Origin: a virus
Lineage: Duplodnaviria > Heunggongvirae > Uroviricota > Caudoviricetes
DNA: 64,000 nt
IMG/VR virus record: IMGVR_UViG_3300021387_000463
Coordinates: 107,001-171,000 of that record
Reading direction: 5' to 3' (one strand)
Positions within the stretch are counted from its first letter, which is position 1, and every line of letters starts with the position of its first letter. The translations under genes were made by a program, and so were the position numbers. The notes beneath the pieces are model-generated. The model worked only from the letters and a program-made list of their open reading frames with translations. It ran no database searches and was not told the origin of the DNA. Positions 16,294 to 64,000 of the stretch are shown here, piece after piece.

Positions 16294-16299
16294 CAACTT

Positions 16300-24564: not shown

Positions 24565-24725
24565 GCGTACCGTTTTGGGGCACTTTTTGAGTAAACAAAG
24601 TGTTAAACTTTGGCACTAGATAGCTACTAGGTGTTATGGGTTGGAAAGTTTGAATCCCTTGGGGGTTTGTAGAATGTAATGTTTTTAACCAACTGTTTTT
24701 GATACGGCTTAATATTTAATTATAT

Positions 24726-38058: not shown

Positions 38059-38110
38059 ACTATCAACAGCCACACTGTACCCCCACAAGGGGACAATGTG
38101 GCTTTAATAT

Positions 38111-40141: not shown

Positions 40142-40148
40142 GCAAACA

Positions 40149-40234
40149 TGGCGAGGTGCCAGAGTGGACAATTGGGGCACTCTCATAAGGTGTTAGTTTC
40201 GGCTACCGTTGGTTCGAATCCAACCCTCGCTACC
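40149..40234 (+). tRNA. type-II tRNA with anticodon CAT and encoded CCA
   Basis: acceptor ggcgagg/cctcgct; D arm tg-cca-gagtggacaat-tgg; anticodon stem gcact/ggtgt with loop ctcataa; variable arm; T arm gttgg/ttcgaat/ccaac; a-cca. Confidence 0.4.
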
Positions 40235-40235
40235 A

Positions 40236-41513: not shown

Positions 41514-42077
41514 ATGGATAAGAAATTGGTTAACCAGCCTTGTTATGACAAAGAAGGCAATTTTATCGGATGGTTTAGCCGTTCAATGGCAGCAGCAATC
41601 TTCATCTATTGTAGAGACAAAGATGGCGATTGGTGCGTTCTTGCGTCAGAGCGAGGCGAGGAAGCTGCTGACTTTAGAGGTTTTTGGAATTGCACATGCG
41701 GTTACTTGGATTTTGGGGAAACCACCAAGGATTGCGCAATGAGGGAGCTGTATGAGGAAACTGGACTACTCATAGATGAAAAGCTAGTCAAGTTTGTGGC
41801 TTATGAGGATAGTCCAGAGGCGAATAAGCAGAATGTTACATTCCGTTTTGCAGCATTCATCGATGACGCAATTACAGACGAATTTACCTTCTCTAAAAAG
41901 CACAATGAGGGTAAGGAAGTAGGAGAAATCAAATGGATTAAGATATCAGACGTGGACAAATACATGTGGGCATTTAACCATGACAAAAGAATAAAAGAGA
42001 TTTTTGCAACTAGGGAAAAGAAACTTTCTTGGGTTGACAAAGTAAAACGTTTCATTGGCAAATTTCTTAAAAAATGA
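41514..42077 (+). CDS. Nudix hydrolase (ADP-ribose pyrophosphatase-like)
   Basis: Nudix box GYLDFGETTKDCAMRELYEETGL. Confidence 0.65.
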   Translation: MDKKLVNQPCYDKEGNFIGWFSRSMAAAIFIYCRDKDGDWCVLASERGEEAADFRGFWNCTCGYLDFGETTKDCAMRELYEETGLLIDEKLVKFVAYEDSPEANKQNVTFRFAAFIDDAITDEFTFSKKHNEGKEVGEIKWIKISDVDKYMWAFNHDKRIKEIFATREKKLSWVDKVKRFIGKFLKK

Positions 42078-46748: not shown

Positions 46749-48299
46749 ATGAATGACTCTAAAGAATTAAATGAGAAGAAAGAGGGTATCGTTGATACCA
46801 CTCCAAAGGGAGAAGAGCAGACAACTACTCCTAAAGTAGATAATAACTCTGAGGGTACTAAGGAAGTATCTGGTGAGATTGTCTCAGTTATTCTCGACAA
46901 GGAAGTTTCCGTCCGTTTCGATGACAAGGAAGGGGCTGTATTACCTTATGACAAATTTAAGGAGAAGCCTATGGTTGGTGACACCGTAACGGTACGTCTT
47001 GAAAAGAAGAACAATGATATGGTGGTAACTGACATCGTATCACATGAGAGACCCAATAAGGAGTCTGAAACATCTAATGAGGAAGATGATGTGGAAGAGG
47101 TTGAAGTAGAGACCGACCCCATCGATGATGAAATGGACTTAGCCTATCTGGACAAGGACTTTGTTCTTGAAACTATGTCCGTTCCTAGTGATACCCACAA
47201 CGAGTTTCGTTTGGTAGTTTACGTCATTCAGTTTGCAAGACGTAACGGCATCAAGTATGAATTTGACGATTACGGTAACGTATATCTTACAAAGGGTGAG
47301 CTTGCCGAAGGTGAGTATTATCCTTGTGTAACCTCTCACCTTGATAGTGTTCAGCATAAGCAGCAGCCTTACATCTTTGCTGGTGTTCCTCTTGACCTTA
47401 AGTGTGAACGCACTAAGGACAATGAGCATAAGGTCTTTGTAGATACCAAGGGACAAGACCGAATTGGTATCGGTGCTGACGATAAGGGCGGTGTATGTAT
47501 CTGTCTTTCAATGTTTGAACACCTTGAGAAGCTTAAGGCTTGTTTCTTCCTTTGTGAAGAGATAGGTTGCCTTGGTTCTAAGGAGCTTAACAAGGAGTGG
47601 TTCAAAGACGTTGGTTACTGTATCGGTTATGACTCTCCAGATTTGATTCGTGCTGCATGGTCATGCGCAGGTGTCAAGCTCTTCTCCTACGAGTTCTATG
47701 AGAAGTGGATGAAGCCAGTGTGTGATGAGTGGGGTCTTAAGGACTGTTTCTACTCAGAGCCTATCACTGACGTGATGGAGATTCGTAAGCAAGTTGGTGT
47801 TATGTGTATGAACTTTGGTAATGGTGGTTACAACGCTCACTCAGAGAGCGAGTACATCATTCTAGAGCACATGGACCACGCTTGTGGTATGGGTCTTGCT
47901 CTTATTGACCATATCGGTTGTACACGTCACTACTTGAAGCACACATCTTCAACTTATGGTACATCTAAGGGTACATACAAGAAAGAGGGTGGCTTCTATA
48001 TCCGCACTGATGTGGATGATACCAAGCAGTTAGAGAGTCTTGGTGACAACAAGCGTAGAGGTACAACCACATATTACGGTGGTAGCGGTTATAACTCTAA
48101 TCGTAGCACTGTTACCAAGGATGAACAGCTCAACTTTGAGATTGTTAAGTATATTGTCAATCGTTACGATGGACATATCTTGGCAATCAAGGACGAGGTG
48201 CTTGAGGCAATCAAGGGCATCTGTGAGAAGTCAGGTGTTGACTACTCATTGTTCGAGACAGAGGTGAGTGAGAAATTCAGTAATGATATTAAATTTTAA
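46749..48299 (+). CDS. M20/M28/M42-like metallopeptidase with acidic N-terminal domain
   Basis: IGIGADDKGGVCI, HSESEYIILEHMDHACGMGL; start placed after the -7 box. Confidence 0.45.
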   Translation: MNDSKELNEKKEGIVDTTPKGEEQTTTPKVDNNSEGTKEVSGEIVSVILDKEVSVRFDDKEGAVLPYDKFKEKPMVGDTVTVRLEKKNNDMVVTDIVSHERPNKESETSNEEDDVEEVEVETDPIDDEMDLAYLDKDFVLETMSVPSDTHNEFRLVVYVIQFARRNGIKYEFDDYGNVYLTKGELAEGEYYPCVTSHLDSVQHKQQPYIFAGVPLDLKCERTKDNEHKVFVDTKGQDRIGIGADDKGGVCICLSMFEHLEKLKACFFLCEEIGCLGSKELNKEWFKDVGYCIGYDSPDLIRAAWSCAGVKLFSYEFYEKWMKPVCDEWGLKDCFYSEPITDVMEIRKQVGVMCMNFGNGGYNAHSESEYIILEHMDHACGMGLALIDHIGCTRHYLKHTSSTYGTSKGTYKKEGGFYIRTDVDDTKQLESLGDNKRRGTTTYYGGSGYNSNRSTVTKDEQLNFEIVKYIVNRYDGHILAIKDEVLEAIKGICEKSGVDYSLFETEVSEKFSNDIKF

Positions 48300-48308: not shown

Positions 48309-50837
48309 ATGATAGGTACAAGCATTAGAAGCGTCAGACACTTATTCAGAGTGTCTGATGCCTCTTTGAAAACAGTTCTTATTAAGTTCAAGGAAAACGC
48401 ATGGGATATTTGTAAGGTAGTTAAATTCCCTAAAGGTAGTGCATTTGGAGAAACTATGTTTATCTTCAATAACTACATTCGTCAAAGCCATTGGAGTTTT
48501 GACTCAATTCTTGTGTCAAATGAATTCAGAAAACTTTTCAAAATAGAAGACGTAACTGCTTATGCTTGTCGTGCCATATCTGTTAACAGCAGTGAATTTT
48601 CCTCTTTGGCTGGATATTTCCAAGAGATTACCTTACTTCCAGATTCTTTCGAAAGTGATTACGAAAAGTTCTTGAAAGACAATAACAAGATGGTGACAAA
48701 CTTGTGCAGCAAGTATGGCATTGCCACAAGGGACATTAAGATGAAAAGACTATACATCTATTCTGATGGTTCTAAGAACTTCTTCCAGTGGGCAGTAAAC
48801 TCTTACTATCAGAATGGAACATCTATGTCTGTGCTCAAGAATATTCTCCTTTGGAACGAATCTTATAAACAGCTTTCAAAGAACTTAGAGAAGGGTACAA
48901 TTACGGCATATACGTCAAAGGATTCAATCGTTAAGCTCTTAAAGGAGTTGGTAGAGTTGAGAAAAGAGAAGAGAATTAACGACTCAATCAACTCATTCAA
49001 CACAGCGCAGAAGAAACTCTTCAAGAGCAATAAATTGGCTGATGCGGATAAGCAAGCCCTCTGGCGTCTTTCACGTCTTTCAGAGACAAAGAGAATTAAT
49101 TTCATCAAAAAAGTATCATCAATTACCGATTTCAATGAGTTATTGAGACAGCTTCGTTTTGCGACTAGCGTACATTTCTCATGGAATAAGGAATCATTCA
49201 TGGACTTTCTTGAGAATGTTGAGGGTATCAAATACGAGAAGATATACGACAACGAAAAAGTTGTTCTTGTTAAGGTTATCGATTACGAAACCATTAAGCA
49301 GCTTGGTAAGACCACTAACTGGTGTATCTCCAAGAACAAGTCATACTGGAACAACTATATCGAAAACTATCATGGTGTAACCACACAGTATATGATTTTC
49401 GACTTCTCTAAGTTAGAGGATGACAAATTATCTATTGTTGGATTCACCACAACTCGCAACAAGGGTATCACTTCAGCTCATAACTTTGTTAATGAGAATC
49501 TTATGGGTGGCGAAGAGGGAGAGCAAGTATTCCTTAACTCATTTATATCTAGGTTCAAGGAATCCAAGAACATCTATTCTGTGCTTGCAGATGATGGTAT
49601 CGATATTACCCTTGTTGTTCAGTATGACATGCCACCTTATAAGTGGGATGAAAACAGCCTCATGGACTACTTGTATGAGTGTGTAAATCCAGAGAATGTT
49701 GATGTCATTAAGAAGAGTGAAGGTAAAGTTGTTCTTTCCATCACGGATGAAAATATCCGTTACTTCCTTGGTGATGCATACCATGACAATATCCCAAGCG
49801 ATTATTGGAATTATCAGCACATCTTGTTCATTGATTTCAACAAGAGCGTATATGATGTTAACAAACTTCAGTTCGCAATTATTGAGGAAGGTGGCGGTGA
49901 TGAGGACTATTGCATGGGTCTGTACAATGAGAGGGCACTTGGTGCTAATCAGAACTTTGACACAAAACTTATTGAGTTCGGTTTGCCGTACAATACAATA
50001 AGACGTACAAATGACCCTTACGTAAGACTGAGAAATGGTTTGTTCTCATACAACACACCAATGATTAAGGCTTGTGTGGCTGAGTGTGGTAAGGATGTTA
50101 TCAAGAAGATGATTACTAAGGATGTTGGTACTGATACATTCTATGACATGATTCTCAGAACAGTAAGAAACCACATGTCATTTGACTATCTCAACCTTAT
50201 CTATGACAATGGTCTTAAGTTGACAGATATATTCTCAGCAAGTTATGTTGGTGATATACTCAAACAGTTTGTCCATGACATGAGGAACTTGAGTAGAGCA
50301 ACTACCATGTTCAAGAATATCAAGGCTGTAAGCGAAGAGAACATCAAGAACTTCTATGATGGGAATTATGGAAGGGATGATACCAAGTATATCGGTTTCT
50401 TTGTTGCAATCAAGATGATTATTGACAAGGAGAAAGGTCTATCGAGCCGAGACTATAATTCAATGTTCAAGAGGACTTTGAACTTTATAGCAAACGATAG
50501 CAAGAATTCCCAGCTCTATGACGAGTTGTTTAACATGTTCAAGGACAAGATGGATTATTCATTAGCAGATGACGCAACATATTGTATTATCAAGTATGCG
50601 ATTTACCGCGGTGGTGAAGAGACAAAGAAATTCATCGAAAACAAGACCAAGGAATCTTCGAATGTAAAGAAATACTATGAGACCATCAAGAGGGACTTTG
50701 AGAAATTAACTACCTCTTCAAAGGTGAATAGTGCTAGCGCAAGAAATAATGGAGTATATACAGTTCGTCTTGAGAATCCTATAGACCATCTTGAGTTTGA
50801 ATATGCAGTAGCTCCAAACGGTGATATTGGATTCTAA
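48309..50837 (+). CDS. large hypothetical protein, paralog A (842 aa)
   Basis: shares the central block TNWCISKNKSYWNNY...FDFSK...GFTTTRNKG with 51127-53187 (TKWCITREESYFRQY...FDFGR...GFTMENGRG). Confidence 0.65.
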   Translation: MIGTSIRSVRHLFRVSDASLKTVLIKFKENAWDICKVVKFPKGSAFGETMFIFNNYIRQSHWSFDSILVSNEFRKLFKIEDVTAYACRAISVNSSEFSSLAGYFQEITLLPDSFESDYEKFLKDNNKMVTNLCSKYGIATRDIKMKRLYIYSDGSKNFFQWAVNSYYQNGTSMSVLKNILLWNESYKQLSKNLEKGTITAYTSKDSIVKLLKELVELRKEKRINDSINSFNTAQKKLFKSNKLADADKQALWRLSRLSETKRINFIKKVSSITDFNELLRQLRFATSVHFSWNKESFMDFLENVEGIKYEKIYDNEKVVLVKVIDYETIKQLGKTTNWCISKNKSYWNNYIENYHGVTTQYMIFDFSKLEDDKLSIVGFTTTRNKGITSAHNFVNENLMGGEEGEQVFLNSFISRFKESKNIYSVLADDGIDITLVVQYDMPPYKWDENSLMDYLYECVNPENVDVIKKSEGKVVLSITDENIRYFLGDAYHDNIPSDYWNYQHILFIDFNKSVYDVNKLQFAIIEEGGGDEDYCMGLYNERALGANQNFDTKLIEFGLPYNTIRRTNDPYVRLRNGLFSYNTPMIKACVAECGKDVIKKMITKDVGTDTFYDMILRTVRNHMSFDYLNLIYDNGLKLTDIFSASYVGDILKQFVHDMRNLSRATTMFKNIKAVSEENIKNFYDGNYGRDDTKYIGFFVAIKMIIDKEKGLSSRDYNSMFKRTLNFIANDSKNSQLYDELFNMFKDKMDYSLADDATYCIIKYAIYRGGEETKKFIENKTKESSNVKKYYETIKRDFEKLTTSSKVNSASARNNGVYTVRLENPIDHLEFEYAVAPNGDIGF

Positions 50838-50842
50838 ACGCT

Positions 50843-51028
50843 ATGTTTAAAATAATTCTACTTTTTATAGCAATAGGCTTTACTGTTTTTTCAGTGAATT
50901 ATAAGTTTAGCAAAGCAGTAAGGTTTATTGCTTACAACGAAGAAGAAACCCAAGCTGGGGCTTATGCGGACATCTTTCTTTGTATAGGTATCACAGTTCT
51001 GTGGACAATATATTTTTCACTATTTTAA
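50843..51028 (+). CDS. small membrane protein (61 aa)
   Basis: two TM helices. Confidence 0.45.
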   Translation: MFKIILLFIAIGFTVFSVNYKFSKAVRFIAYNEEETQAGAYADIFLCIGITVLWTIYFSLF

Positions 51029-51126
51029 GGTTTGTTAACTTGAAAAATTTGTTATTCAATATTTTTTTGTATAACTTTGCATCGACAAACAATTTTTGAA
51101 ACAAAACATACTTAATAGAATAAAAC

Positions 51127-53187
51127 ATGACTTACAACAAGAAACAAATGCAGCCTTTGATTGATAAGTATGCTATCAATCCTGAGACTAACAAGCTGTT
51201 TGCTAGTGTTTGTGAAATGTTTGACGGACAGCCAAACTATCAGATTTGGGCAGTAAAGATGGTTTTCTCCAAATCATTAAACATGGACCAGCTTGAAGCA
51301 ATTCACGAATGGGTCACTAAGAACCAAACCCTAGTGAAATCACTTGAGAAACAGAACATTGTATCTTATTCAACAAAGAATGCTATTTCTCAGTTATTCA
51401 ACGAAATGAATGGTCTTGATAACCTTTCAGTTATTAAAGATACAATCAGTCGCTTCAATACTGACCAGAGAAAGATGCTTACTAGCAGCTTGCTTCCAAG
51501 AGAGTATACTGCATTAGAGGGATATTCTAACCCTAACATTAAAAAGTGGGCTGACATCTTTAGAAAGTTCAACCGTCTTCCATTTGACCGTAAGAACAAG
51601 TTCTTCAGTAACTGTTCTAAGTTGAGAGACCTTAACAATTTGCAGAGTGCCATCGTTACTTGTCTTGAGACATCATACGAATGGAACAAGGAAGACCTTT
51701 TGGCATACGTAGCAAACGTGACAACTGACTGTGAGGTTGTGCTCGACAATGGTAACTTCGTTATCGTTCATGTTCCTTCATTCAAGTCAAGTAAACTTCT
51801 TTGTGGTAATGGACGTACCAAATGGTGTATCACTCGTGAAGAGAGCTACTTCCGTCAGTACGTGACTGACCAGAGCAATAGAGACCAGTACTTCTTGTTC
51901 GACTTTGGCCGTAAGGAAAGTGATGCATTCGCACACATCGGTTTCACAATGGAGAATGGACGTGGCTTCTACTGCGCTCAGACTTGTAACAACTCTAGTA
52001 TGGTAGGTGGTTACACACAGAATGGTGAGACCCTTAACATCAGCCAAGCACTTGAGAGAGCTGGTTGTAAGATGTCTCTCTTCTTACGTCTTAACGCTCT
52101 TGTGAACTACAAGTGGGAACTTGATTCTATTGTGAATCTCATTAAGAGCAAACCAAACGATTTCGCCATTGCTTATGAGAAAGATGGACGTTTGATTATC
52201 AACGTTCTTAACACTCAAGCAGTTAAGACCCTTATCGGTCACTCACTCATTAACAATAGCAATTTCATAGTTGACAACAATAACAAGGTGTACGTATTCA
52301 TTGACACCAATGTTAAGTATAACGATGATAGGGCACTTATCGCAATGCACTATCAGAAAGACCAATACGGTACTCTCTCATTGAAGAGAATGTGTGACCC
52401 ATTCAACACCGATATTACCAAGGCTGGTTATTTGTCAAAGGTTGGTATTACCACTGACAACTATCTCAACCGTGAGGCTATCGACCCACAAGTATTGCTT
52501 CACAAGCTTATCGATGAGAACGATGAGATTGGCGCATTGAAACTTCTTGAGAAAGAGGGTAAGGACTTTAACGTCAACTACGAGTTCAATCAGAGAATTC
52601 CTATTATCTCTGCTGTGAACAACAAGATGTACAACTTGTTCGAGAAGATTGTAAGCCATCCTAAGTTTGATTCTTCAATCGAGGACGGTTTCGGTGAGAC
52701 CCTTCTTGAGTCACTTATTTATCTCTATGGTAGTGACGAGATTTCAGCCTCTAAAGAGGAAGAGAAGTCTCTTAAGAGAATGATTACCGCAATCTTGAAG
52801 TCTGATACATACGACTTCAACGCGAAAGACCTTAACTCTGACACTGCAATCAACATTGCATGTGAATATCCAAAGATGCTGTGGATTGTTGAGGCTCTTG
52901 CATCTAAGAAGAGTGTTGACATCAACATTGTTAATGATTTTGAGTGTGCAGCCCTTGGTGACTGTATCCGTAATAAGAACCTTGAAGCATTGAAGATTAT
53001 CGGTAAGAGACCTGATGTTAAGGTTAGGGAAGAGGATAAGAAACTCGCTAAGACCTATGGCATCAACTTGGGTGACTACATCAAGCCTGATGAGAAGATT
53101 TTCGGTAGTTTCAAGTTCGAGGAAACTGAGGACGATGGTAAGACCACATCTAAGTCAGAAATGGAAATGGCTATGGCTGCTTCATAA
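51127..53187 (+). CDS. large hypothetical protein, paralog B (686 aa), C-terminal ankyrin-like repeats
   Basis: paralog of 48309-50837; own promoter at ~51040-51090. Confidence 0.65.
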   Translation: MTYNKKQMQPLIDKYAINPETNKLFASVCEMFDGQPNYQIWAVKMVFSKSLNMDQLEAIHEWVTKNQTLVKSLEKQNIVSYSTKNAISQLFNEMNGLDNLSVIKDTISRFNTDQRKMLTSSLLPREYTALEGYSNPNIKKWADIFRKFNRLPFDRKNKFFSNCSKLRDLNNLQSAIVTCLETSYEWNKEDLLAYVANVTTDCEVVLDNGNFVIVHVPSFKSSKLLCGNGRTKWCITREESYFRQYVTDQSNRDQYFLFDFGRKESDAFAHIGFTMENGRGFYCAQTCNNSSMVGGYTQNGETLNISQALERAGCKMSLFLRLNALVNYKWELDSIVNLIKSKPNDFAIAYEKDGRLIINVLNTQAVKTLIGHSLINNSNFIVDNNNKVYVFIDTNVKYNDDRALIAMHYQKDQYGTLSLKRMCDPFNTDITKAGYLSKVGITTDNYLNREAIDPQVLLHKLIDENDEIGALKLLEKEGKDFNVNYEFNQRIPIISAVNNKMYNLFEKIVSHPKFDSSIEDGFGETLLESLIYLYGSDEISASKEEEKSLKRMITAILKSDTYDFNAKDLNSDTAINIACEYPKMLWIVEALASKKSVDINIVNDFECAALGDCIRNKNLEALKIIGKRPDVKVREEDKKLAKTYGINLGDYIKPDEKIFGSFKFEETEDDGKTTSKSEMEMAMAAS

Positions 53188-53327: not shown

Positions 53328-54803
53328 ATGAATGTTTATAATTTTAAGAAAATTGAGAAATGTTATGTGTTTGGAAACATAGACAGAAACATGGATAGGT
53401 TTATCAAAACCATAACATCTAATATTTCAAAATTTAAAAAAGAAGAGCATCCAAAGGAAATCGAAAGACAAGAGAGACTAAAAAAGCGTGAAGCAGATAG
53501 GCTAGCTAATGATGGGCTTGGTGGAGGTCTTGGTTTACATAATCCATATGACGCTCATTTACAACAGCGTAGAGTTAATAGACGTGACGCTGGTATGGAC
53601 CTAGACCCTTCACCATTTGCATGGAATATTGGGGATAGTGATAAGAAAATGTTTACTAGAAAGGTAGATTCAAGTTACAATGACAGTGTAATCATCGTTA
53701 GTGGTAACTGTGGTATTGGAAATAAGAGCAAGAAGTATTACGAGGAAACATTTAGTAAACTAGATAAGATTCTTGGTGATAACAATTGCTTTGTCTTATT
53801 CGTAAGAGGTAACAACGATAACCCTTCTATCTTCAACAACATGGAAATTGACTTTGAACATATTAAGGCAATTCCAGATTATTCAGTGGTTGCAATGAAG
53901 ACATTCAACTGTCTCTGTATCGGTGGTAGTGTCTCAATGGATAAGGAGTGGAAACTAGCTCAAGAAGAACTTTATGGAAAGAAACTCTATTGGGAGGATG
54001 AAGCCCCTAAATATCATGAAAAGCAACTGAAGGAAATACTTGATGCCTATAACATCAATTGTATTATTACAAGCACTTGTCCGAGCTTTGCATATCCTGG
54101 AACTAATGCTTTTAAGAAAAGCAAGTGGTTCTATCGTGATAAGAAAATTGTTTCTGAATTTTCAAAGGAGAGAAAAATCATGGACAAAATATATGAGCAG
54201 ATTATGGACTCTGAATCAAAACCATATATGTGGATTTATGGCAGATTTAAGATGTATCACACAGACAAGATTAACGATATTGTTTTCTGTTCATTGGCTT
54301 CTTATGGAATGATACAAGTTAACTCTCAACTGAGTGCTTTCTTCGGTGTTGATACATCCAAGACACTTGAGACCAATGCGCACACATTCGACCATATTCT
54401 CAATGAAGAACTAAACGGTGCTGCAAGACTAAGACCACATGAAATCGAAGATGAGGCGATGGAAATTGGTGATGAAGACATTGCAGAAGGTGATGATGAG
54501 GAAATGGCAAACGATGTAGCTGAAGAGGTTGAGGCTGCTCCAAGAGAGAATGTAGCTGCTACTGCAAATACAGTTGAAGAAGCAAGAGAAACACTTGACC
54601 GAATGATTCAAGAAATAAGAGCTGCTGACAACTACACATATGCCGATTATGCTACAATATTTAACCAAGCAAGGAATATGACAGTGGGGGGCAATGACAT
54701 ATACACAATAAGGGCACAAGCTCCTCAAGAACTAAGAGCTGTTACACTCGAAGATATAGACCGAGTTGCACCAGTCATGGGAAACGGAACTAGAAATGGC
54801 TAA
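53328..54803 (+). CDS. hypothetical protein (491 aa), weak phosphoesterase-like features, acidic C-terminus
   Basis: SGNCGIGNKS and VRGNNDNP only loosely resemble P-loop / GNHD motifs. Confidence 0.45.
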   Translation: MNVYNFKKIEKCYVFGNIDRNMDRFIKTITSNISKFKKEEHPKEIERQERLKKREADRLANDGLGGGLGLHNPYDAHLQQRRVNRRDAGMDLDPSPFAWNIGDSDKKMFTRKVDSSYNDSVIIVSGNCGIGNKSKKYYEETFSKLDKILGDNNCFVLFVRGNNDNPSIFNNMEIDFEHIKAIPDYSVVAMKTFNCLCIGGSVSMDKEWKLAQEELYGKKLYWEDEAPKYHEKQLKEILDAYNINCIITSTCPSFAYPGTNAFKKSKWFYRDKKIVSEFSKERKIMDKIYEQIMDSESKPYMWIYGRFKMYHTDKINDIVFCSLASYGMIQVNSQLSAFFGVDTSKTLETNAHTFDHILNEELNGAARLRPHEIEDEAMEIGDEDIAEGDDEEMANDVAEEVEAAPRENVAATANTVEEARETLDRMIQEIRAADNYTYADYATIFNQARNMTVGGNDIYTIRAQAPQELRAVTLEDIDRVAPVMGNGTRNG

Positions 54804-55642: not shown

Positions 55643-56026
55643 ATGGATAGTTTGTCTGAATATGGAGAAAAATATAGGAGAATCCTAACATATTTCCTTA
55701 AGAAAAAGGGAATATACGAGGATTTTGTTGCTAACGCCAAACACTTTAGTACTAAGATGATTAGTAAAAACAATCATCTTCGTGGGAGACAATACTATAA
55801 TGACATATTCAATCATACTGCTTGGGATAATGAGGGACTTGTTGGACTTTTCGAAAAGTTTTTCTCTTTCACAAGTGCTAAATATCCAAAAAACATTAAG
55901 GAACATGATGGTACATGTAAAGAATTAAATATATTCGCTAGATATAACTATTGGATTAGTCTGTTAAAAGAATGGCAAAACTTCATATATAGAAGAGAAT
56001 ACGAAGAAATAACAACATTAATATAA
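55643..56026 (+). CDS. hypothetical protein (127 aa)
   Basis: ORF after a promoter-like tcatatatttgca. Confidence 0.5.
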   Translation: MDSLSEYGEKYRRILTYFLKKKGIYEDFVANAKHFSTKMISKNNHLRGRQYYNDIFNHTAWDNEGLVGLFEKFFSFTSAKYPKNIKEHDGTCKELNIFARYNYWISLLKEWQNFIYRREYEEITTLI

Positions 56027-56977
56027 ATGGATTTATTACTTAAACAATTTAGAGGACGATTCATTGAAGATAATCAGCTACCAATTACAACAGTTGAAAA
56101 TCCCTACTTCGATGAAAGAATCAAGATGCTTGAGGGTGAATTCCATGCACAACTCAAATATCTCTTACTTATGGAAACAGTAAGGGATAACTTTGGCAGT
56201 AACATGCAGAAATTCCTTGAGCATAGACATAGCGTTAAAGACCAGATTTTGAGTCACATACTCAATTCTGAAGGCTACAAGACAATGTTGGCTGACAAGT
56301 CCCCATTGGAGGATTGTAAGCTTATTGTAGGCGCAAATGAGATTTACACAGAGCAGCAAGATGGTGGTTTGTTCTTGTCATTTGATATGATTAAGGCAAA
56401 CTTCCAAGCACTTCGCTATGTTGACCCAAGCATTGTGCGTGATTGTGATACTTGGGAAGAGTTCGTAGCTTGCTTCACTGATGTGAAATACCTCGCCTCC
56501 GCAAAGCAAGTAAGACAAGAGGTATTGGGTAAACTCAATGGTAAAAGATTGGCAGCTATTGAGAAATACCACTCTAACGAGTTTGCAAAAGAGTTCAAGT
56601 ATAGATTGGGAATATATGGTTTCTCACCATTCTCAATCAAGACTGACGAGATTATCTTCAAGTTTAATGGCACTGAGAAGGAATTTGAGTCATTCAACGC
56701 TGGAGACCAAGAGTATAAGGGTTTCAAGTTCCGTGTGAACAAATTCAAGCTCCATATGAGAACCTTCAAGAGAGCATTCTCTGATAAACTCATAAATGTA
56801 TTCGAAAAGGAAGACTTCTTAGATGGTCATAGACGCAATTTAAAGTGCGTTCCTGCCACTTATTACCCACAAGTGTATAAACTACTCAATGGGATGGAGA
56901 TAAGCGATTCTGACCTAGTTTTCACTAGCGACCATGAATTGTGTAAGTATATGAAGCCTATTGAGTTGGAGAAATGA
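56027..56977 (+). CDS. hypothetical protein (316 aa)
   Basis: ORF. Confidence 0.5.
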   Translation: MDLLLKQFRGRFIEDNQLPITTVENPYFDERIKMLEGEFHAQLKYLLLMETVRDNFGSNMQKFLEHRHSVKDQILSHILNSEGYKTMLADKSPLEDCKLIVGANEIYTEQQDGGLFLSFDMIKANFQALRYVDPSIVRDCDTWEEFVACFTDVKYLASAKQVRQEVLGKLNGKRLAAIEKYHSNEFAKEFKYRLGIYGFSPFSIKTDEIIFKFNGTEKEFESFNAGDQEYKGFKFRVNKFKLHMRTFKRAFSDKLINVFEKEDFLDGHRRNLKCVPATYYPQVYKLLNGMEISDSDLVFTSDHELCKYMKPIELEK

Positions 56978-57180
56978 CGAACATAAGTAAAGATTTTGCA
57001 TATTATCTTAAGCAAAGACGTGCATTCTCCAACTTCGTAAGATATACTAAAAGGGATGAGGGACACGTTACTTGGTGTTATTTCAATTGGGATGATACCA
57101 AAGAGGGAGTGGCTTATTGGCAAGACATATTCAATGGCTTTATACCTTTTATAGAAAAGAAATACGATTATATAAATTAG
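56974..57180 (+). CDS. hypothetical protein (68 aa)
   Basis: ORF, ATGA overlap. Confidence 0.4.
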   Translation: MTNISKDFAYYLKQRRAFSNFVRYTKRDEGHVTWCYFNWDDTKEGVAYWQDIFNGFIPFIEKKYDYIN

Positions 57181-57186: not shown

Positions 57187-58581
57187 ATGGAAATATTCAA
57201 AGACGAAAGAATAAAGAAAGTCTTAGCGAAGATTCAGAATGCCATTAAACTGACTGCCTTTGAGGGGCATGTTTATGTGGTTGGTGGTGCGGTGAGAGAC
57301 GCACTGTTGAACCTTCCAGTCAAGGACTTGGATTTCGTGGTAGAGATACCTAATGGTGGAGTAATGCTTGCCCATCTTCTTGCTTCAAAGGAGAAGTGTT
57401 ATGTGATGGGTAAGAATCCAGTAATATTCGAGACCTATGGTACTGCAAAGCTGAATCTCTTTAAGGATGAAGACCTCAAAGACTTTGACCTTGAATTCGT
57501 TCAGACTAGAAAGGAGCAGTATCACAAGGAGAGCAGAAACCCAGATACAGTGTTTGGTTCAATCGAGGAAGATGCAGCACGTAGGGACTTAACCATTAAC
57601 TCATTGTACTACAATGTTACTGATGGTAAGTTGTACGATTTCAACCAAGGTGTTGATGACTTGGTTAACCAAGTGATTAAGACCCCAACTGACCCAGATG
57701 TTATCTTTGACGATGACCCACTACGTATCTTGAGAGTTATCAGATTCTCTTGCAGATATGGCTGGGGTATCGAGAAGAACACTTGGTTGGGCATGGTTAA
57801 GAATGCACATCGTATCAAGATTATCTCACAAGAGAGAATCACTGATGAGATTTCCAAGATTATAACTGGTCCAAACGCTTCTGTTGGTATCCGCAAGATG
57901 TTGTTCTGTGGCATCTTGAATAGGGTAATGCCAGACATCTACGACTTAACCAACGCATATGAATCAAAGAATCCAATGCTTACCTCATTTGACCACACAA
58001 TGTTAGTTCTTGATAAGGTACAGCCTTATATTGAGAATAGACTTGCTGCATTGTTTCATGATGTAGGTAGAATCGCAACTGAGGGAAATAGGGGTATCTC
58101 TCAAGATTCATTCAGTGCTGATGTTGCTAGCTGTGACTTGAAAGCGATGAAATTCCCAAAGAATATTATCAATTCTGTTGAGAACGCAATCAAATATCAC
58201 AGATTCTTCAGAAACTACGCTGATGGCACTGTTCCACCAGACAAGAAGATAAGAAAGTTTATCAACGAGTGTGGTGACAACATTGGAAACGTGGTTGACT
58301 TGATGAATGCTAACAACTTGTATCAGACCTACGATAAGAAGAAGAGACAAGTATTGGATATTCTGAATAGAATTGAAGAGCTAGATGAGCTTGAAGAGGC
58401 TAAGAACGTTAAGCTGCCTATCGATGGAAAAGATTTAATGGCAGAATTTAATCTTAAAAGTGGCCCTCAGATTGGTATACTCATGGAACACTTGAAAGAG
58501 GCTTATTTCGAGAATCCGAAGATTACCAAGGAAGAGTGCTTCAAGTTGGTTGAGGATAAGATTAAAGTCTTGGCAGTCTAA
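57187..58581 (+). CDS. cca: CCA-adding enzyme (tRNA nucleotidyltransferase, class II) with HD domain
   Basis: VVGGAVRDALLNLPVKDLDFVV head-domain motif; RDLTINSLYY; HD motif LFHDVGR. Confidence 0.7.
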   Translation: MEIFKDERIKKVLAKIQNAIKLTAFEGHVYVVGGAVRDALLNLPVKDLDFVVEIPNGGVMLAHLLASKEKCYVMGKNPVIFETYGTAKLNLFKDEDLKDFDLEFVQTRKEQYHKESRNPDTVFGSIEEDAARRDLTINSLYYNVTDGKLYDFNQGVDDLVNQVIKTPTDPDVIFDDDPLRILRVIRFSCRYGWGIEKNTWLGMVKNAHRIKIISQERITDEISKIITGPNASVGIRKMLFCGILNRVMPDIYDLTNAYESKNPMLTSFDHTMLVLDKVQPYIENRLAALFHDVGRIATEGNRGISQDSFSADVASCDLKAMKFPKNIINSVENAIKYHRFFRNYADGTVPPDKKIRKFINECGDNIGNVVDLMNANNLYQTYDKKKRQVLDILNRIEELDELEEAKNVKLPIDGKDLMAEFNLKSGPQIGILMEHLKEAYFENPKITKEECFKLVEDKIKVLAV

Positions 58582-58733
58582 CTCTGCCAAGTCTTTTTTC
58601 TTTATATATTATATTATTTAATATATTAATTAAAATATATAATAATATATTAAAATATAATAAATATTATATTAGTTATTTTTTTATTTAAAATATTTTT
58701 AGTATCTTTGCAAAAAGTATAAAGTATATCAAT

Positions 58734-58988
58734 ATGGGAACATTATGTAAAAATTGTCCTGTAAGGAATTCACATAAGGAAAATGGTCAACCGTGTACCG
58801 TTGCTTTTGCAATGAGGTACGGCAATAGTTGTGTCAATCTTGACATAACAGAACAGCTATTCAACAAAGAATTAGAAGAACTGTCCAAGAAAAAGGAAGA
58901 GGACAAAAAGAAAAAGACTGAGACCAAGAAGCCTAGAACAACAAAGAAGAAAGAAACGGAAAAAGTAGAAATTTTAAAAACAGAATAA
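58734..58988 (+). CDS. small Cys/Lys-rich protein (84 aa)
   Basis: ORF after the promoter at ~58690-58725. Confidence 0.45.
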   Translation: MGTLCKNCPVRNSHKENGQPCTVAFAMRYGNSCVNLDITEQLFNKELEELSKKKEEDKKKKTETKKPRTTKKKETEKVEILKTE

Positions 58989-58992
58989 ACAT

Positions 58993-59568
58993 ATGGGAAG
59001 AAAAATTTTAATTATCGTTGATGGTCAGTATGACTTTCTTGAGGGTGGTGCTCTTGCAGTAGAAGGTGGTAAAGATGCTATGACCAATCTCACCGAGTTC
59101 ATTGAGAAGCATTACAAGGAGTATGATGGCATATTCTTAACTGCTGATTGGCATCCAATCACTCACTGTTCATTCAAGGATAATGGTGGTATCTGGCCAA
59201 CTCACTGCGTACAGTTCTCACATGGTGCTGCAATATATCAGCCAATTCTTGATGTGTTAGACGATTTAAAGGTTGACTACGATGTTCTTACGAAGGGCTG
59301 TGACGAAGACCATGAGGAGTATTCTATCTTCAAGAATGTTACCTCAGAGGCATATCTCAAAGCCATGAACAAACACAACGAGATTGGTGTTGTTGACATT
59401 TGTGGTATCGCTGGAGACTACTGTGTGCTTGATACCATCAAGGATGGGCTTATGGAATTTCCGAATGCCGAGTTCCATGTTATCAAGGAGTGTGTTGCAT
59501 CAATCGATGGTGGCGCAACATTGAACAAGTTTATTGACGATAACGAAAGGGTTTTATGTCACGAATAG
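58993..59568 (+). CDS. pncA: isochorismatase-family hydrolase, nicotinamidase (PncA)-like
   Basis: ILIIVDGQYDF, catalytic Cys context DICGIAGDYCVLDT. Confidence 0.55.
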   Translation: MGRKILIIVDGQYDFLEGGALAVEGGKDAMTNLTEFIEKHYKEYDGIFLTADWHPITHCSFKDNGGIWPTHCVQFSHGAAIYQPILDVLDDLKVDYDVLTKGCDEDHEEYSIFKNVTSEAYLKAMNKHNEIGVVDICGIAGDYCVLDTIKDGLMEFPNAEFHVIKECVASIDGGATLNKFIDDNERVLCHE

Positions 59569-59804
59569 ATATGGACATTAAGGAATATCAAGGCATGAGG
59601 AACAAGATTAAAAACTTGGAATCTGCCTTGAATTCCGTTTCTATGGAGGCTGCTACCAACAAAGAGATTATCGAGAAAGTTAAGGCTCTAGTAGTAGACC
59701 TTGAGGGGGAAGGATTTTTTAACCGCTTGTTTAGATGGAAAAGTGTGATTGAACCTTTTAAGGAGTTGTTAGAGACACATGGGCAGATTCAAGAGGAAAA
59801 GTAA
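59556..59804 (+). CDS. hypothetical protein (82 aa)
   Basis: ORF. Confidence 0.4.
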   Translation: MSRIDMDIKEYQGMRNKIKNLESALNSVSMEAATNKEIIEKVKALVVDLEGEGFFNRLFRWKSVIEPFKELLETHGQIQEEK

Positions 59805-60459
59805 AAAGCGATACCATATACCCAAAAACGCAGTAGAGCAATATATTGAAAAGGTTAGAAAGCCAAAAAGCAAGATTGTAGTTTGGACTTCACCTATAAA
59901 AGACAATAGGAGATTGGTTGGCTTATTCAGAAAACTATTTTTGGTACTTAAGAAAAACAAGAAATTCGGAAACTTCATAGAATGTTTTAAGCCAATTGAG
60001 AAAAAAACGCAATACGGTACTGCTGATAGTGTACGAACATGCTTGGGTGGCAACTTTAATTATAGCCAAGCACGTATTCTGATTGGAAGCAACTTTTTTG
60101 TACCAATTGAAAGAAATATGTTGACACCAAATGGTATCGCAAATACACCAATTGGAAATGTGATATGGCTTGACTACTTGCTTGAAAAGAATTGGCATCA
60201 TAAAAGAGATACTGATTTAGGTAAACGAGACATAGCTGAAATGTATCTGAGGGATGCGTATGAGGAAAAAGGCATCACAAAGTCTAAAGTTCCAAACGAA
60301 ATGGCGTTTTCAATGCGAATGGGGACAATACTAGCCTCAATATTCTATTTGATAATTACCTTTATGCTCTATTGGTTTATATCGCCATTGGCTGCTTTGA
60401 TATACAGCTTGATTACGGCTTTTATAATTGTTTACTTCCTCTTCAGTTTCCCAAATTAA
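59779..60459 (+). CDS. basic protein with C-terminal TM helices (226 aa)
   Basis: ORF. Confidence 0.45.
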   Translation: MGRFKRKSKKRYHIPKNAVEQYIEKVRKPKSKIVVWTSPIKDNRRLVGLFRKLFLVLKKNKKFGNFIECFKPIEKKTQYGTADSVRTCLGGNFNYSQARILIGSNFFVPIERNMLTPNGIANTPIGNVIWLDYLLEKNWHHKRDTDLGKRDIAEMYLRDAYEEKGITKSKVPNEMAFSMRMGTILASIFYLIITFMLYWFISPLAALIYSLITAFIIVYFLFSFPN

Positions 60460-60515
60460 TTAACAACATTTAACACCATCCATTTGGTGAGTTCAAAAAT
60501 ATTTCGTATCTTTAC

Positions 60516-60992
60516 ATGGAGAAATTGACGATAGATGTATTCAGACATTTTAGGTTTTTCTTGAAAAAGAATAAACAGTATGACTTGTTCATGCGAAATT
60601 TCAGAAGACAGCCATTTCAGATTTATCACGTATTTGATTCGAAGATTCCGAATTACATACAGATAATGATGAAAGATTCTGTAGATGGGATTGGAAATCG
60701 ATACTTCAAGGAATTCGGTGCAATGCATCTTATCTTTAGGTCATTTAATTGGTCTGGAGATTGTTGCACAACCAAAACAAATTCGAAGCATTGGGCTACG
60801 GTTGGTCTTAAATGGGCGTTATATTGCATAAGGCATAACATCGACATATGCACAGATGAACGGCTTGGGAGACTTATAGAGTATTGGAATTCTAATGGAT
60901 GGATTAATATTAGCAAGCTATCCTTTGAAGATAAAATAATAGTAAATCAGTTAAAACGAAAATATAATAATTATGGGGTTACAAGTGTATGA
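60516..60992 (+). CDS. hypothetical protein (158 aa)
   Basis: promoter-like tcgtatctttaca upstream. Confidence 0.5.
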   Translation: MEKLTIDVFRHFRFFLKKNKQYDLFMRNFRRQPFQIYHVFDSKIPNYIQIMMKDSVDGIGNRYFKEFGAMHLIFRSFNWSGDCCTTKTNSKHWATVGLKWALYCIRHNIDICTDERLGRLIEYWNSNGWINISKLSFEDKIIVNQLKRKYNNYGVTSV

Positions 60993-61908
60993 TAAGATTG
61001 ATACAATCTATAAAAGATACCAGTTTGATGGTAAGGATTGTCCAAATAAGGATTGGTTAAAGTTCAAGAATAAGATTATTCTTGGTGAGTTCTCAAACAA
61101 GGAGGCTGAGTATCTGTTCAACTGTCTTTGGGAAGCATATAGTAAGTTAGACGGAACAAACTCTAAAATTGCATTCTTCCCCTCAACTAGTGAGATTCGT
61201 GTTGAGGGTAAGACCGAGAAAGCTCAGTCACAGCATGGACAGTTCGAAATGCTTGAGAAGATTGGTGAGCGTATCAAGCCACAGCTTTGCGCAATGTTCC
61301 CAAAGGAGTCAGCAAGGTTTGCTCCAGTTAAAGAGGGAAATAAGGTTCAGTATTATGCAACTAGGGTTGAGTATGCAACGGCATTTAATCCTATAGTTGA
61401 TTTTAAAAAGGCAGAACCTACTGCCAATGGATTGTATGGTGTTCAGCTAGAGGAAGTTCCTATATACATCTACGGTGAGTATTTCGGTACTGGTATTCAG
61501 AAGTATGGTTCTCGCTACATTCAGAATGGTAACGGTTTCCGTGTATTCGACATTAAACAGCAAGGTTGGTGGTTGCCAAAGGAGAATCGTGATGCAATGT
61601 GCAAAGGTCTTGGTCTTGAGACTGTGCCTTTCTTGGGTGTTATGACCTTGCGTGACATTGAGGATATGGTACGTAAGGGCTTCACTACCAAGTTTGAGGG
61701 AGCTGCTGACCCAACAATGCTTGAGGAGGGTATTGTAGCACGTCCCATCATTCCTCTTTACAGTGGCAATGGTAGTTCCACTCGTGTCATCGTTAAGGTG
61801 AAGTACTGTGATTACGTTGAGTATGATGCTGTACGCAAACAATTCTCTGATAAGGAGTTCACTGAGTTCGACACTTGGTATCATGAGAATATCGAAAGTA
61901 AAAAATAA
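60973..61908 (+). CDS. RNA ligase (Rnl2-like ATP-dependent nucleotidyltransferase)
   Basis: motif I KLDGTN (adenylylation lysine, cf. T4 Rnl2 KIHGTN); motif IV-like EEGIVARP; motif V-like RVIVKVKY. Confidence 0.55.
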   Translation: MGLQVYDKIDTIYKRYQFDGKDCPNKDWLKFKNKIILGEFSNKEAEYLFNCLWEAYSKLDGTNSKIAFFPSTSEIRVEGKTEKAQSQHGQFEMLEKIGERIKPQLCAMFPKESARFAPVKEGNKVQYYATRVEYATAFNPIVDFKKAEPTANGLYGVQLEEVPIYIYGEYFGTGIQKYGSRYIQNGNGFRVFDIKQQGWWLPKENRDAMCKGLGLETVPFLGVMTLRDIEDMVRKGFTTKFEGAADPTMLEEGIVARPIIPLYSGNGSSTRVIVKVKYCDYVEYDAVRKQFSDKEFTEFDTWYHENIESKK

Positions 61909-62646: not shown

Positions 62647-63840
62647 ATGATTTATAGTATACTCGATTCAGACCTCTATAAATTTACGATGTCTAATGCT
62701 TATTTTCAGTTGTATCCTGATGCTGAAGGTACGTTTGCTTTTAATGACCGTAACAATGAGGTTTATGACAAGAAGTTCTTGGAAATGCTTCAATTAGAGT
62801 TCGCTCGTCTTTGTGAACTTAAGTTGACAACGGAAGAGTACATGTATGTGTCTCAGATTCGTTTTTTAGCAACCAACTACACTGAGTGGTTGAAGAACTT
62901 TAAGTTTGAGTTTGACAAGATTAAGTTCTGGCTCGATGACGAGGGACATCTTCACATTGAGGTAACTGACAAGATGTATAAGGTAACTCTTTACGAAGTA
63001 CCTATCCTTGCCACAGTTGCCGAGTGTCGTAACAAGTGGCTTGGTGTACACATTGATAATGCAAGGGTGATTGAAATCCTCGATAAGAAGATTGACTTTG
63101 CCAATGAGCATCAGTTGTATTTCTCTGAATTCGGTACAAGACGTAGAGCTTCTGCTGCAAGTCATGACCTCATTGTAAGACGTTTGAAGGAGCGTTGCCC
63201 AATCTATTGCGTTGGTACATCCAATGTGTATTTGGCAATGAAGTATAACATGATGCCTAGTGGAACTTGCGCACATGAGTGGATTATGTTCCACGCTGGT
63301 ATTGGCGGTTTTAAGACTGCTAACCTCACAGCCCTTAACGATTGGATTAAGGTGTATCAAGGTGACTTGGGTATTTCGTTGATTGATACCTATACCACAG
63401 CTTCATATCTCCACACACTTACGCTTAAGCAAGCTAAGTTGCTTGATGGCTTCCGTCAAGACAGTGGTGATGAATACCGCATCGGTAACATGATTATCGA
63501 TAAGCTGCATGAAATGCGCATCGACCCAACAAGCAAGACCATTGTCTTCAGCAATGCGCTTAACTTTGAGAAGTATGCTGAGATTGCTCGTTACTTTAAG
63601 GGACGCATCAAGGTATCCGCTGGTATTGGTACAAACCTTACTTGTGACCTTGGTATTGATGGCTACAAGCCAGCCAATATCGTGATGAAACTCGCTAAAT
63701 GCCGTTACAGTCCTCGTGATTTCTGGGAGTATGTCATCAAGATTTCCGATGACCTTGGAAAGCACATGGGTCGTAAAGACCTATTCGACATTGCTGCCAA
63801 GGAGTTGCACTTTGAAGAGCTTGGTGTTAAAGTAAATTAA
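62647..63840 (+). CDS. pncB: nicotinate phosphoribosyltransferase (NAPRTase, PncB-like)
   Basis: N-terminal ILDSDLYKFTM and C-terminal SAGIGTNLTCD are NAPRTase family hallmarks. Confidence 0.6.
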   Translation: MIYSILDSDLYKFTMSNAYFQLYPDAEGTFAFNDRNNEVYDKKFLEMLQLEFARLCELKLTTEEYMYVSQIRFLATNYTEWLKNFKFEFDKIKFWLDDEGHLHIEVTDKMYKVTLYEVPILATVAECRNKWLGVHIDNARVIEILDKKIDFANEHQLYFSEFGTRRRASAASHDLIVRRLKERCPIYCVGTSNVYLAMKYNMMPSGTCAHEWIMFHAGIGGFKTANLTALNDWIKVYQGDLGISLIDTYTTASYLHTLTLKQAKLLDGFRQDSGDEYRIGNMIIDKLHEMRIDPTSKTIVFSNALNFEKYAEIARYFKGRIKVSAGIGTNLTCDLGIDGYKPANIVMKLAKCRYSPRDFWEYVIKISDDLGKHMGRKDLFDIAAKELHFEELGVKVN

Positions 63841-63850: not shown

Positions 63851-63882
63851 CGTGAGATATTTGGTTATCTCACGTTTTTTTT
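63851..63882 (+). terminator. terminator hairpin overlapping the next promoter's -33 element
   Basis: cgtgagatatttggttatctcacg + tttttttt. Confidence 0.5.
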
Positions 63883-63891
63883 ATATCTTTG
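63860..63891 (+). promoter_or_regulatory. Bacteroidetes-type promoter
   Basis: TTTGgttatctcacgttttttttaTATCTTTGca. Confidence 0.5.
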
Positions 63892-64000
63892 CAACTAAGA
63901 AACTGAATATTATTGTCGGCAAAGATGATATTGGAAAAAGATAAAGTATACAAAATAAGGCATAAAGGTGAACATTCATTAACCTATTTGAGAGATTACA

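Follow-up and report, generated by a model that had tools for sequence, protein, structure and literature searches.

A minimal Rnl2-like RNA ligase and a predicted CCA-adding enzyme share a conserved accessory block in a metagenomic phage with interrupted and permuted tRNA genes

Jumbo phages commonly combine tRNA genes, several paralogues of the RNA ligase Rnl2, a CCA-adding enzyme, NAD+ synthesis and Macro or NADAR proteins as counter-defence (PMC7824862; Iyer et al., 2021, Viruses 13:63). Here we describe such a combination in a stretch of 64,000 nucleotides (nt) of the tailed-phage record IMGVR_UViG_3300021387_000463 (positions 107,001 to 171,000 of the record; hereafter the window, in which positions are counted from the first letter), which makes up about 15% of a genome of ~410-430 kb and encodes an Rnl2-like RNA ligase (60973-61908) and a CCA-adding enzyme (57187-58581) downstream of a large tRNA array. 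The window agrees with the jumbo-phage sets in its many tRNAs, Rnl2 ligase(s), CCA-adding enzyme, NAD+ genes and NADAR/Macro component (PMC7824862); the enzyme set itself is ordinary for giant or jumbo phages, and the combination has already been described. It differs from these sets in that the window contains no polynucleotide kinase, HAD phosphatase, 2H enzyme, RlaP or RtcB, in that its calcineurin-like phosphoesterase neighbour appears to be catalytically dead, and in that its NAD+ salvage proceeds via PncA and PncB (Preiss-Handler). A first-pass annotation had joined the ligase, the CCA-adding enzyme and an endonuclease V into one phage-borne RNA repair and processing system linked to unusual tRNAs; the ligase, the CCA-adding enzyme and the disrupted tRNA genes are real, whereas a heal-and-seal partner and a link to the endonuclease V found no support.

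The closest described enzyme is Rnl2 of phage T4 (gp24.1; 1s68, 2hvq, 2hvr). The predicted product of 60973-61908 (+ strand, 311 amino acids (aa)) shares with it the adenylyltransferase fold, the motifs I (KxDGxN), III, IIIa, IV (EGxVxR/K) and V (KxK) and a similar N-terminal Y-x-K/S-I/L motif. It matches the Pfam family RNA_ligase (PF09414, 1.7e-15) and reads KLDGTN (K58) in motif I, EGIVAR (E252-G253) in motif IV and VKVK (K275, K277) in motif V. A search through 1.84 billion representative proteins supplied the relatives for the alignments (36-49 per alignment), and in an alignment of 50 sequences K58, D60, G61, E169 and D193 are invariant, N63, E252, G253, K275 and K277 being conserved in at least 90%. 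A profile search of the PDB (hmmsearch) returned T4 Rnl2 (1s68) first, with an E-value of 3e-17 and the whole adenylyltransferase domain aligned. Moreover, an AlphaFold2 (AF2) model with a mean predicted local distance difference test score (pLDDT) of 91.3 found T4 Rnl2 (2hvr, 1s68) at the top of a Foldseek search of the PDB (E 2.5e-9), followed by the Naegleria gruberi ligase NgrRnl (Rnl5), REL1 and the archaeal Rnl3 ligases (5d1o, 8uce, 2vug). Sequence and predicted structure together thus confirm the protein as a nucleotidyltransferase-superfamily RNA ligase with T4 Rnl2 as its closest relative, as had been proposed from the motifs, and the lysine-AMP context of K58 within the modelled adenylyltransferase fold contradicts the possibility, raised at the same time, that it is no ligase of this kind. 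None of the curated NCBIfam RNA ligase or Rnl2 models was matched, the sole hit being TIGR01209 with 16.9 bits against a cutoff of 136.9, and single-sequence searches of the PDB with the ligase, with the products of 56027-56977 and 53328-54803 and with a second ligase described below gave nothing useful. Functional assignments in this work derive from sequence and predicted structure.

What could such a ligase be doing in the infected cell? To our knowledge, the biological role of Rnl2-type ligases has been unclear since 2002. Rnl2 seals nicks in duplexes with 3'-OH and 5'-PO4 ends and prefers correctly paired ends (PMC3884662). By analogy, the motifs and fold of the window ligase suggest that K58 would be adenylylated, that the AMP would be passed to a 5'-phosphate and that attack by the 3'-OH would then seal a nick in base-paired RNA. 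The window encodes no kinase and no phosphoesterase that looks active, from which we infer that the breaks on which the ligase acts have 3'-OH and 5'-phosphate ends from the outset, as metal-dependent nucleases leave them; or else it could draw on healing enzymes supplied by the host or by genes in other parts of the genome. The most likely function, to which we assign a probability of roughly 0.45, is to mend nicked structured RNA, and tRNA in particular, as a counter-defence, the ligase and the CCA-adding enzyme being two tRNA-support enzymes that act separately within a conserved accessory block. This reading is placed first because minimal Rnl2-like ligases are found widely among phages and because the neighbours of the ligase's subclade are counter-defence genes; such a role is also in keeping with the nearby genes for NAD+ salvage, for NADAR and for a second Rnl2-like paralogue.

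Several points weigh against repair as a counter-defence. T4 Rnl2 has a C-terminal all-helical domain of ~90 residues, whereas the window ligase ends ~30 residues past motif V with a tail of just two helices (residues 278-306), and neither the alignment nor the AF2 model contains the Rnl2-type C-terminal domain. In T4 Rnl2 this domain is essential both to step 2 and to nick binding, and the adenylyltransferase domain alone carries out steps 1 and 3, yet does not achieve overall sealing of nicks (PMC3884662). It could be imagined that the clade-specific insert at about residues 112-160, which is modelled with low pLDDT and has no counterpart in T4 Rnl2, or the two C-terminal helices may substitute for the missing domain. 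Furthermore, the natural substrate of T4 Rnl2 itself is unknown (PMC3884662), no nuclease that would make the breaks was identified, a Pnkp or RtcB may lie in the ~85% of the genome outside the window, and the disrupted tRNA genes of the window are an alternative in-house substrate. The identity between the window ligase and T4 Rnl2 is 14-16% in structural alignments, and the relatives of the window ligase are mostly minimal proteins of ~210-230 aa, the form of 300-317 aa being a small subclade; the minimal Rnl2-like ligases comprise 1634 representative clusters. The protein would work like Rnl2 but is not a full architectural member of the Rnl2 clade.

That no working end-healing partner lies near the ligase bears on the type of RNA break that it meets. 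In the T4 paradigm Rnl1 and Pnkp act against PrrC, and what the window has in common with it is an RNA ligase encoded by a phage to which intact tRNAs matter. The differences are that the window ligase is of the Rnl2 type and that the window has no Pnkp; Rnl1 acts on breaks in the anticodon loop, Rnl2-type ligases on nicks in duplexes (PMC3884662). The first-pass annotation had invoked this paradigm and pointed to 53328-54803 and 56027-56977 as places where a kinase or phosphatase might be found. A complete heal-and-seal system at this locus, which would reverse anticodon-nuclease cuts with 2',3'-cyclic phosphate and 5'-OH ends and would include the endonuclease V, has the ligase itself in its favour, as well as a ligase relative that adjoins a canonical metallophosphoesterase, and the HD-like motif of the window's CCA-adding enzyme might, by analogy with the E. 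coli enzyme, be able to open cyclic phosphates. The search for end-healing enzymes, which was confined to the window, nevertheless makes such a system highly improbable. A Walker A pattern search of the window detected no polynucleotide kinase, the only Walker A motif belonging to the AAA_25 RecA-like protein encoded by 33229-34200. The HD match of the window's CCA-adding enzyme is below threshold, the ligase is Rnl2-type and not an Rnl1 specific for anticodon loops, the endonuclease V shows no linkage to it, and the two candidate partners have a polymerase-like fold in one case and no metal ligands in the other.

The product of 53328-54803 (+ strand), which has an acidic C-terminal extension, matches the PHROG metallophosphoesterases only weakly. 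Its nature became apparent from a relative, L006, in which a canonical Pfam Metallophos protein, a dinuclear metallophosphoesterase like those of Clostridium thermocellum Pnkp (kinase, metallophosphoesterase, ligase) and lambda phosphatase, is encoded two genes upstream of a ligase orthologue (48% identical). The product of 53328-54803 is homologous to this L006 protein (35% identity, E 3e-41). The L006 protein has the five canonical motifs GDIHG, GDCGIG, GNHD, SHT and GHFH, and the window protein reads GNIDRN, GNCGIG, GNND, TST and GRFK instead. The same substitutions are present in L008-L011 and L014, and the homologue in L013 has GN/GNSD/SST, motifs I and V being unread there. All metal ligands are thus replaced and the protein is nonetheless conserved, which by sequence makes it a pseudo-enzyme rather than a healing phosphatase with activity. 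As all five motifs are degenerate, the window has no active 3'-phosphatase or 2',3'-cyclic phosphodiesterase at this position, and the loss of the metal ligands in every clade member examined speaks against the proposed partnership. The clade also differs from C. thermocellum Pnkp in that there is no kinase and the proteins are separate rather than fused. The sole phosphoesterase-like gene of the block, ~6 kb upstream of the ligase, would accordingly be a fossil that the clade has kept.

The second proposed partner, 56027-56977 (+ strand, 316 aa), is predicted to consist of a polymerase-like palm and fingers with the conserved residues D120, K169/N171 and D207-E208, and seems to share an operon with the CCA-adding enzyme. 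Structurally it is closest to uncharacterised proteins of giant viruses (Klosneuvirus, Tupanvirus, Pandoravirus, medusavirus), some of them fused to R3H or DEDDy exonuclease domains, and homologues are also found in Salicola phage SCTP-2 and Mollyvirus. According to its model the protein is DNA-polymerase-like and has neither a kinase nor a phosphatase fold. A small polymerase-like protein that giant eukaryotic viruses also have resides in the apparent operon of the CCA-adding enzyme.

Endonuclease V is a metal-dependent nuclease that leaves 3'-OH and 5'-phosphate ends. The product of 18007-18669 (+ strand), a divergent endonuclease V-like protein encoded within the tRNA region, matches Pfam Endonuclease_5 (PF04493) with 29.2 bits against a gathering score of 23.4 over profile positions 20-128, and equivalents of the catalytic residues (D6, E52, D74 and K114) were assigned by eye in a weak alignment to 3goc. 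The family identity given to it earlier is borne out; its connection to the ligase is one of position only, the two genes lying 39 kb apart with unrelated neighbours.

The second enzyme of the block is encoded by 57187-58581 (+ strand, 464 aa), a class II tRNA nucleotidyltransferase. It matches the Pfam PolyA_pol head (PF01743, 2.5e-25), PolyA_pol_RNAbd (PF12627, 1.1e-14) and tRNA_NucTran2_2 (7.7e-7) as well as the tRNA nucleotidyltransferases of PHROG 2244 (1.3e-62); the GGAVRD and DLD motifs are readable, and both the polymerase-beta head and the neck/body RNA-binding domain are present. The best NCBIfam match is the CCA model TIGR02692 with 230 bits, which is under its cutoff of 438.8 bits, followed by 126 bits for the pcnB model, and the top matches in the PDB are the tRNA nucleotidyltransferases cca1/cca2 (9ns2, 9ns4). 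These sequence matches suggest that the enzyme is CCA-adding rather than CC-adding, A-adding or a poly(A) polymerase. The nucleotidyltransferase head that had been recognised from GGAVRD is supported by Pfam and PHROG; the HD domain claimed along with it is weak, since PF01966 scores 17.8 bits in the C-terminal region against a gathering score of 22, although DHTMLVL...LFHDVGR can be read by eye. Homologues of the enzyme occur in 392 GenBank phage records.

Why would a phage with its own tRNAs encode such an enzyme? The tRNA array of the window (1254-40235, + strand) comprises 43 tRNA genes detected by ARAGORN and a gene for tmRNA (22249-22604), with which Rfam agrees. Full CCA is encoded by just two of the 43 tRNA genes, Lys-CTT (15154-15228) and Met-CAT (40150-40235), so that the earlier statement that no phage tRNA encodes CCA is nearly right and fails for these two. 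N73-C74 is encoded by 41 of the 43 and by the tmRNA gene; the base that follows C74 is mostly A and, save in the two CCA-encoding genes, never C. As C accounts for ~15% of the bases, the C74 pattern is not a matter of chance. The encoded C74 might be a determinant for RNase P or RNase Z, or the enzyme might add just C75 and A76. A CCA-adding enzyme encoded by the phage suits tRNA genes that end in this way, as had been suggested. The enzyme would finish the 3' termini of the tRNAs and the tmRNA that the phage encodes, and it could also rebuild damaged CCA ends. With the gene ends and the enzyme family at hand, completion of the C74-ending transcripts by the phage enzyme is the best-grounded inference of this analysis, its activity being deduced from sequence.

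The ligase and the CCA-adding enzyme are neighbours in a conserved gene order. Directly upstream of the CCA-adding enzyme a run of genes (55643-57180, + strand) encodes a protein of 127 aa, the 316-aa polymerase-like protein and a protein of 68 aa from open reading frames (ORFs) whose stop and start codons abut or overlap, and this order is kept in L008-L014. The full conserved succession, which holds on contigs of 129-430 kb and down to protein identities of 55-74%, is an ankyrin protein, the dead phosphoesterase, an ORF of 255 aa, the polymerase-like protein, the CCA-adding enzyme, PncA and the ligase. PncA, a nicotinamidase-like protein, lies between the CCA-adding enzyme and the ligase (58993-59568, + strand; Pfam Isochorismatase; NCBIfam 5.5e-22), and downstream of the ligase follows the nicotinate phosphoribosyltransferase PncB (62647-63840, + strand; Pfam NAPRTase; NCBIfam 404.6 bits, over the cutoff). 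Further downstream, PncB is followed in L001 and L008 by NADAR and the second ligase and in L009 by NADAR; the NADAR gene is located just beyond the window (L001 13294-13806). The second ligase, a PF09414 protein of 228 aa with the motif KLDGQN (L001 19865-20551), lies downstream of NADAR, ~9 kb past the window end, and shows 18% identity to the first; its counterpart in L008 occupies 20388-20936 of that sequence. The second ligase is preceded by a protein of 441 aa that belongs to PHROG 2087 and by an ORF of 201 aa. In L009 an IS605 OrfB/TnpB gene (Cas12f-like; 18438-19580), inserted on the opposite strand, takes the place that the genes ahead of the second ligase have in the other genomes. 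The small ORFs before the polymerase-like, CCA-adding enzyme and ligase genes were considered as a paralogous family, which pattern searches and all-against-all BLASTP rejected.

Further members of the NAD+ and ADP-ribose set are scattered through the window, namely an NMNAT-like gene (21249-21809), CinA/PncC (29158-29649), a HIT protein (29652-30035) and a NUDIX protein (41514-42077). Together with PncA and PncB the set resembles a Preiss-Handler-type rebuilding of NAD+ from nicotinamide, presumably against defences that deplete NAD+. Distant orthologues of the ligase subclade adjoin a Macro domain, an NAD-dependent DNA ligase together with Tad3, or the canonical metallophosphoesterase, and these neighbourhoods are contexts of counter-defence or of RNA end healing. 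The same surroundings could be read differently. If ligase and CCA-adding enzyme were neighbours on an accessory island with no common pathway, the CCA-adding enzyme would merely boost the host activity and the ligase would act on a substrate other than tRNA, for example on nicks in RNA-DNA hybrids in replication or transcription or on mRNA or guide-directed RNA cuts. The genes that lie between and around the two are indeed genes of NAD+ salvage (PncA, PncB, NADAR) and not of RNA repair, in Lak phages the homologues of the two are ~150 kb apart, and T4 Rnl2, with its natural substrate unknown, also seals nicks in RNA:DNA hybrids (PMC3884662). We nonetheless regard such an unconnected neighbourhood as unlikely, as the order CCA-adding enzyme, PncA, ligase is kept throughout the clade, as the phage invests heavily in tRNAs, and as one ligase orthologue is linked to a canonical phosphoesterase (L006).

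A more specific alternative to repair in the service of counter-defence arises from the tRNA array itself. The described precedents are the circularly permuted tRNA genes, and those with non-canonical introns, of Cyanidioschyzon merolae and of archaea, in which, as in the window, the 3' half lies upstream and the acceptor ends are joined by a short linker, inserts occur at non-canonical positions and a ligase would be needed for maturation (PMC3978253, PMC3218864). In the first-pass annotation permuted tRNA units had been suspected, and at least one is real. The gene for tRNA-Thr(UGU) at 21122-21202 (+ strand) is circularly permuted with a break at 29|30, the 3' half (G30-T73, 21122-21165) being followed by the linker GTAAG (21166-21170) and the 5' half (C1-T29, 21171-21202). 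The order of elements is T-arm, an acceptor stem of 7 bp closed by a loop of 6 nt (T73 and GTAAG), and D-arm. Rotation yields a tRNA-Thr(UGU) of 76 nt, and the arrangement is kept in L020 and L021, where the linker alone varies.

Four further genes are interrupted. Rfam returned two tRNA matches of 126-127 nt in which the acceptor, D and T arms are intact and 65-67 nt stand in the place of the anticodon arm. The first is tRNA-Asn(GUU) (16167-16294, + strand; 45 bits), with a stretch of 67 nt in the anticodon arm of the Rfam match; removal of an insert of 54 nt (16195-16248, junction 28|29) leaves a canonical tRNA of 74 nt. The second is tRNA-Ile(GAU)-like (24440-24566, + strand; 40.8 bits), where removal of 54 nt (24466-24519) leaves a cloverleaf of 73 nt with four of the five anticodon-stem pairs, the position of the break being ambiguous. 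Scanning for acceptor strands that match orphan T-arms added tRNA-Gly(UCC) (33070-33207, + strand; insert of 64 nt at 33100-33163, junction 29|30), which is kept in the relatives L028 and L082, and tRNA-Gln(UUG) (40023-40143, + strand; insert of 49 nt at 40051-40099, junction 29|30), and Gln-UUG is present solely as this interrupted gene. Removal of the insert or rotation in silico gave canonical cloverleafs of 72-76 nt in five out of five cases (Asn-GUU, Ile-GAU, Gly-UCC, Gln-UUG and Thr-UGU), and the rejoined anticodon stem has five perfect pairs in four of them, the chance of this being 0.035 per gene. Between the Asn gene of the window and that of L017 there are exactly two base differences, which form the compensatory pair 29-41, and in the more distant relative L018 the pairing of the stem and the hairpin of the insert are kept with different bases. 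The architecture of the inserts was read by eye: in four of the five a hairpin is followed by a bulge with ACAGCA, the insert of the Ile gene having the hairpin and an ACAG variant, and the permuted gene has a leader and a trailer able to pair into the same helices as the inserts.

Could these genes provide the substrate of the ligase? A nuclease would remove the insert, or the leader and trailer, and leave a nick with 3'-OH and 5'-phosphate ends inside a duplex of 5 bp, upon which the ligase or its paralogue of 228 aa would join the tRNA halves as a maturation enzyme. The canonical tRNAs obtained after removal or rotation with four perfect anticodon stems out of five, the compensatory pair 29-41 and the pairing kept in L018, the conservation of the permuted gene, the common hairpin with ACAGCA or its variant and the sole occurrence of Gln-UUG as an interrupted gene all favour this proposal. 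In addition, the lack of a kinase and of an active phosphatase in the window suits ends that can be ligated directly, and a duplex nick at 29|30 is a preferred Rnl2 substrate (PMC3884662). All disrupted tRNA genes are broken within the anticodon stem, so that they offer a concrete, testable substrate for an Rnl2-type ligase. We consider the proposal rather unlikely all the same, as no splicing nuclease was identified and no bulge-helix-bulge (BHB) motif is evident. By eye the junctions look like three-way junctions in the anticodon stem, and the disrupted RNAs could function uncut as tRNA-like molecules with a three-way junction, or the inserts could be removed by RNA catalysis. Furthermore, the ligase lies 20-45 kb from the disrupted tRNA genes, and minimal Rnl2-like ligases are also present in crAss-like and Streptomyces phages, in which no such tRNA genes are known.

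Compared with the genes of C. merolae and the archaea, those of the window belong to a bacteriophage, have their junction in the anticodon stem (28-30), show no evident BHB and carry inserts with a hairpin-plus-ACAGCA element of their own, and the candidate ligase is of the Rnl2 type and not RtcB. A Pfam scan of 53 ORFs, which left many small ORFs aside, detected no EndA domain. A literature search returned no report of permuted, split or interrupted tRNA genes in phages. That the disrupted tRNAs form a new class, in which a phage Rnl2-type ligase seals the maturation nick with no need for end healing, is a doubtful but consequential proposition: it would mean a protein-dependent pathway of tRNA splicing or permutation in a bacterial virus and would assign a first natural substrate to an Rnl2-type phage ligase.

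The disrupted genes were also considered under other headings. The inserts were not called as ribozymes or group I introns, their stability being about that of shuffled sequences (z about 0) and no Rfam family matching. The layout of the permuted tRNA, and not a Ro-binding stem, accounts for a weak match to the Y RNA-like YrlA at 21111-21220 (31.9 bits; gathering score 69), and a weak match to a permuted tmRNA was rejected since it overlaps the standard tmRNA gene. Running ARAGORN on arbitrary rotations proved too permissive as a test. Exact-match scans for relatives of the interrupted Ile, Gly and Gln genes returned nothing; a degenerate scan for the insert motif gave 75 loci, which is estimated to be about the chance number, the true relatives among them being just L028 and L082. 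The sequences at 8268-8384 and 8777 (8777-8830) resemble further disrupted or permuted tRNA genes in which the anticodon arm could not be resolved. More orphan T-arms or tRNA fragments are located at 8655, 10100, 12482, 13134, 16008, 21004-21085, 25070 and 40314, the fragment at 21060-21085 being followed by an encoded ACCA.

To which phage does the block belong? The long ORFs of the window are all on the + strand and its GC content is ~37%. A search with the DNA of the window found no near-identical sequence among the GenBank phages, and the clade is represented only in metagenomes. The ligase protein has more than 600 close metagenome relatives (73-100% identity) on contigs of up to 409-430 kb, and an identical protein is encoded on an 83-kb ENA scaffold. 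In GenBank, the proteins most closely related to the ligase and the CCA-adding enzyme include those of the Prevotella Lak megaphages, at ~30% identity. A promoter-like motif, TTTTAGTATCTTTGCAAAAA, is repeated in the window, and TTTTAGTATCTTTGCAA recurs at 11654-11680, 58696-58722 and 63877-63900. We take both to resemble the Bacteroidota -7 promoter element TAnnTTTG, and the recurrence of TTTTAGTATCTTTGCAA is consistent with a Bacteroidota host. The window is probably part of a gut megaphage that infects Bacteroidota.

Several other features of the window were observed. A GOLLD-like structured RNA (23993-24426; 73.6 bits, E 4e-17, gathering score 150), matched over the full length of the model, lies directly upstream of the interrupted tRNA-Ile gene. 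The tRNA at 27142-27227, labelled "Pyl" by ARAGORN, has the anticodon CUA of an amber suppressor and hints at recoding of TAG in part of the genome. Long variable arms resembling those of class II (82-89 nt), unusual for these identities, are predicted for Glu, Pro, Asn and Met tRNAs (1254-1340, 3795-3876, 12982-13070 and 40150-40235). Amid the tRNA genes there are mutually paralogous genes for endonucleases of the DUF559/HNH families (1525-2400, 4671-5600, 7477-8169 and 8925-9377), which look like homing endonucleases. Two pairs of large paralogous ORFs match no family, one at 36751-39355 (435 and 411 aa) and one at 48309-53187 (842 and 686 aa), the 686-aa protein of the latter having C-terminal ankyrin repeats. 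Finally, 46749-48299 weakly matches an S1/CSD domain of "TOTE conflict systems".

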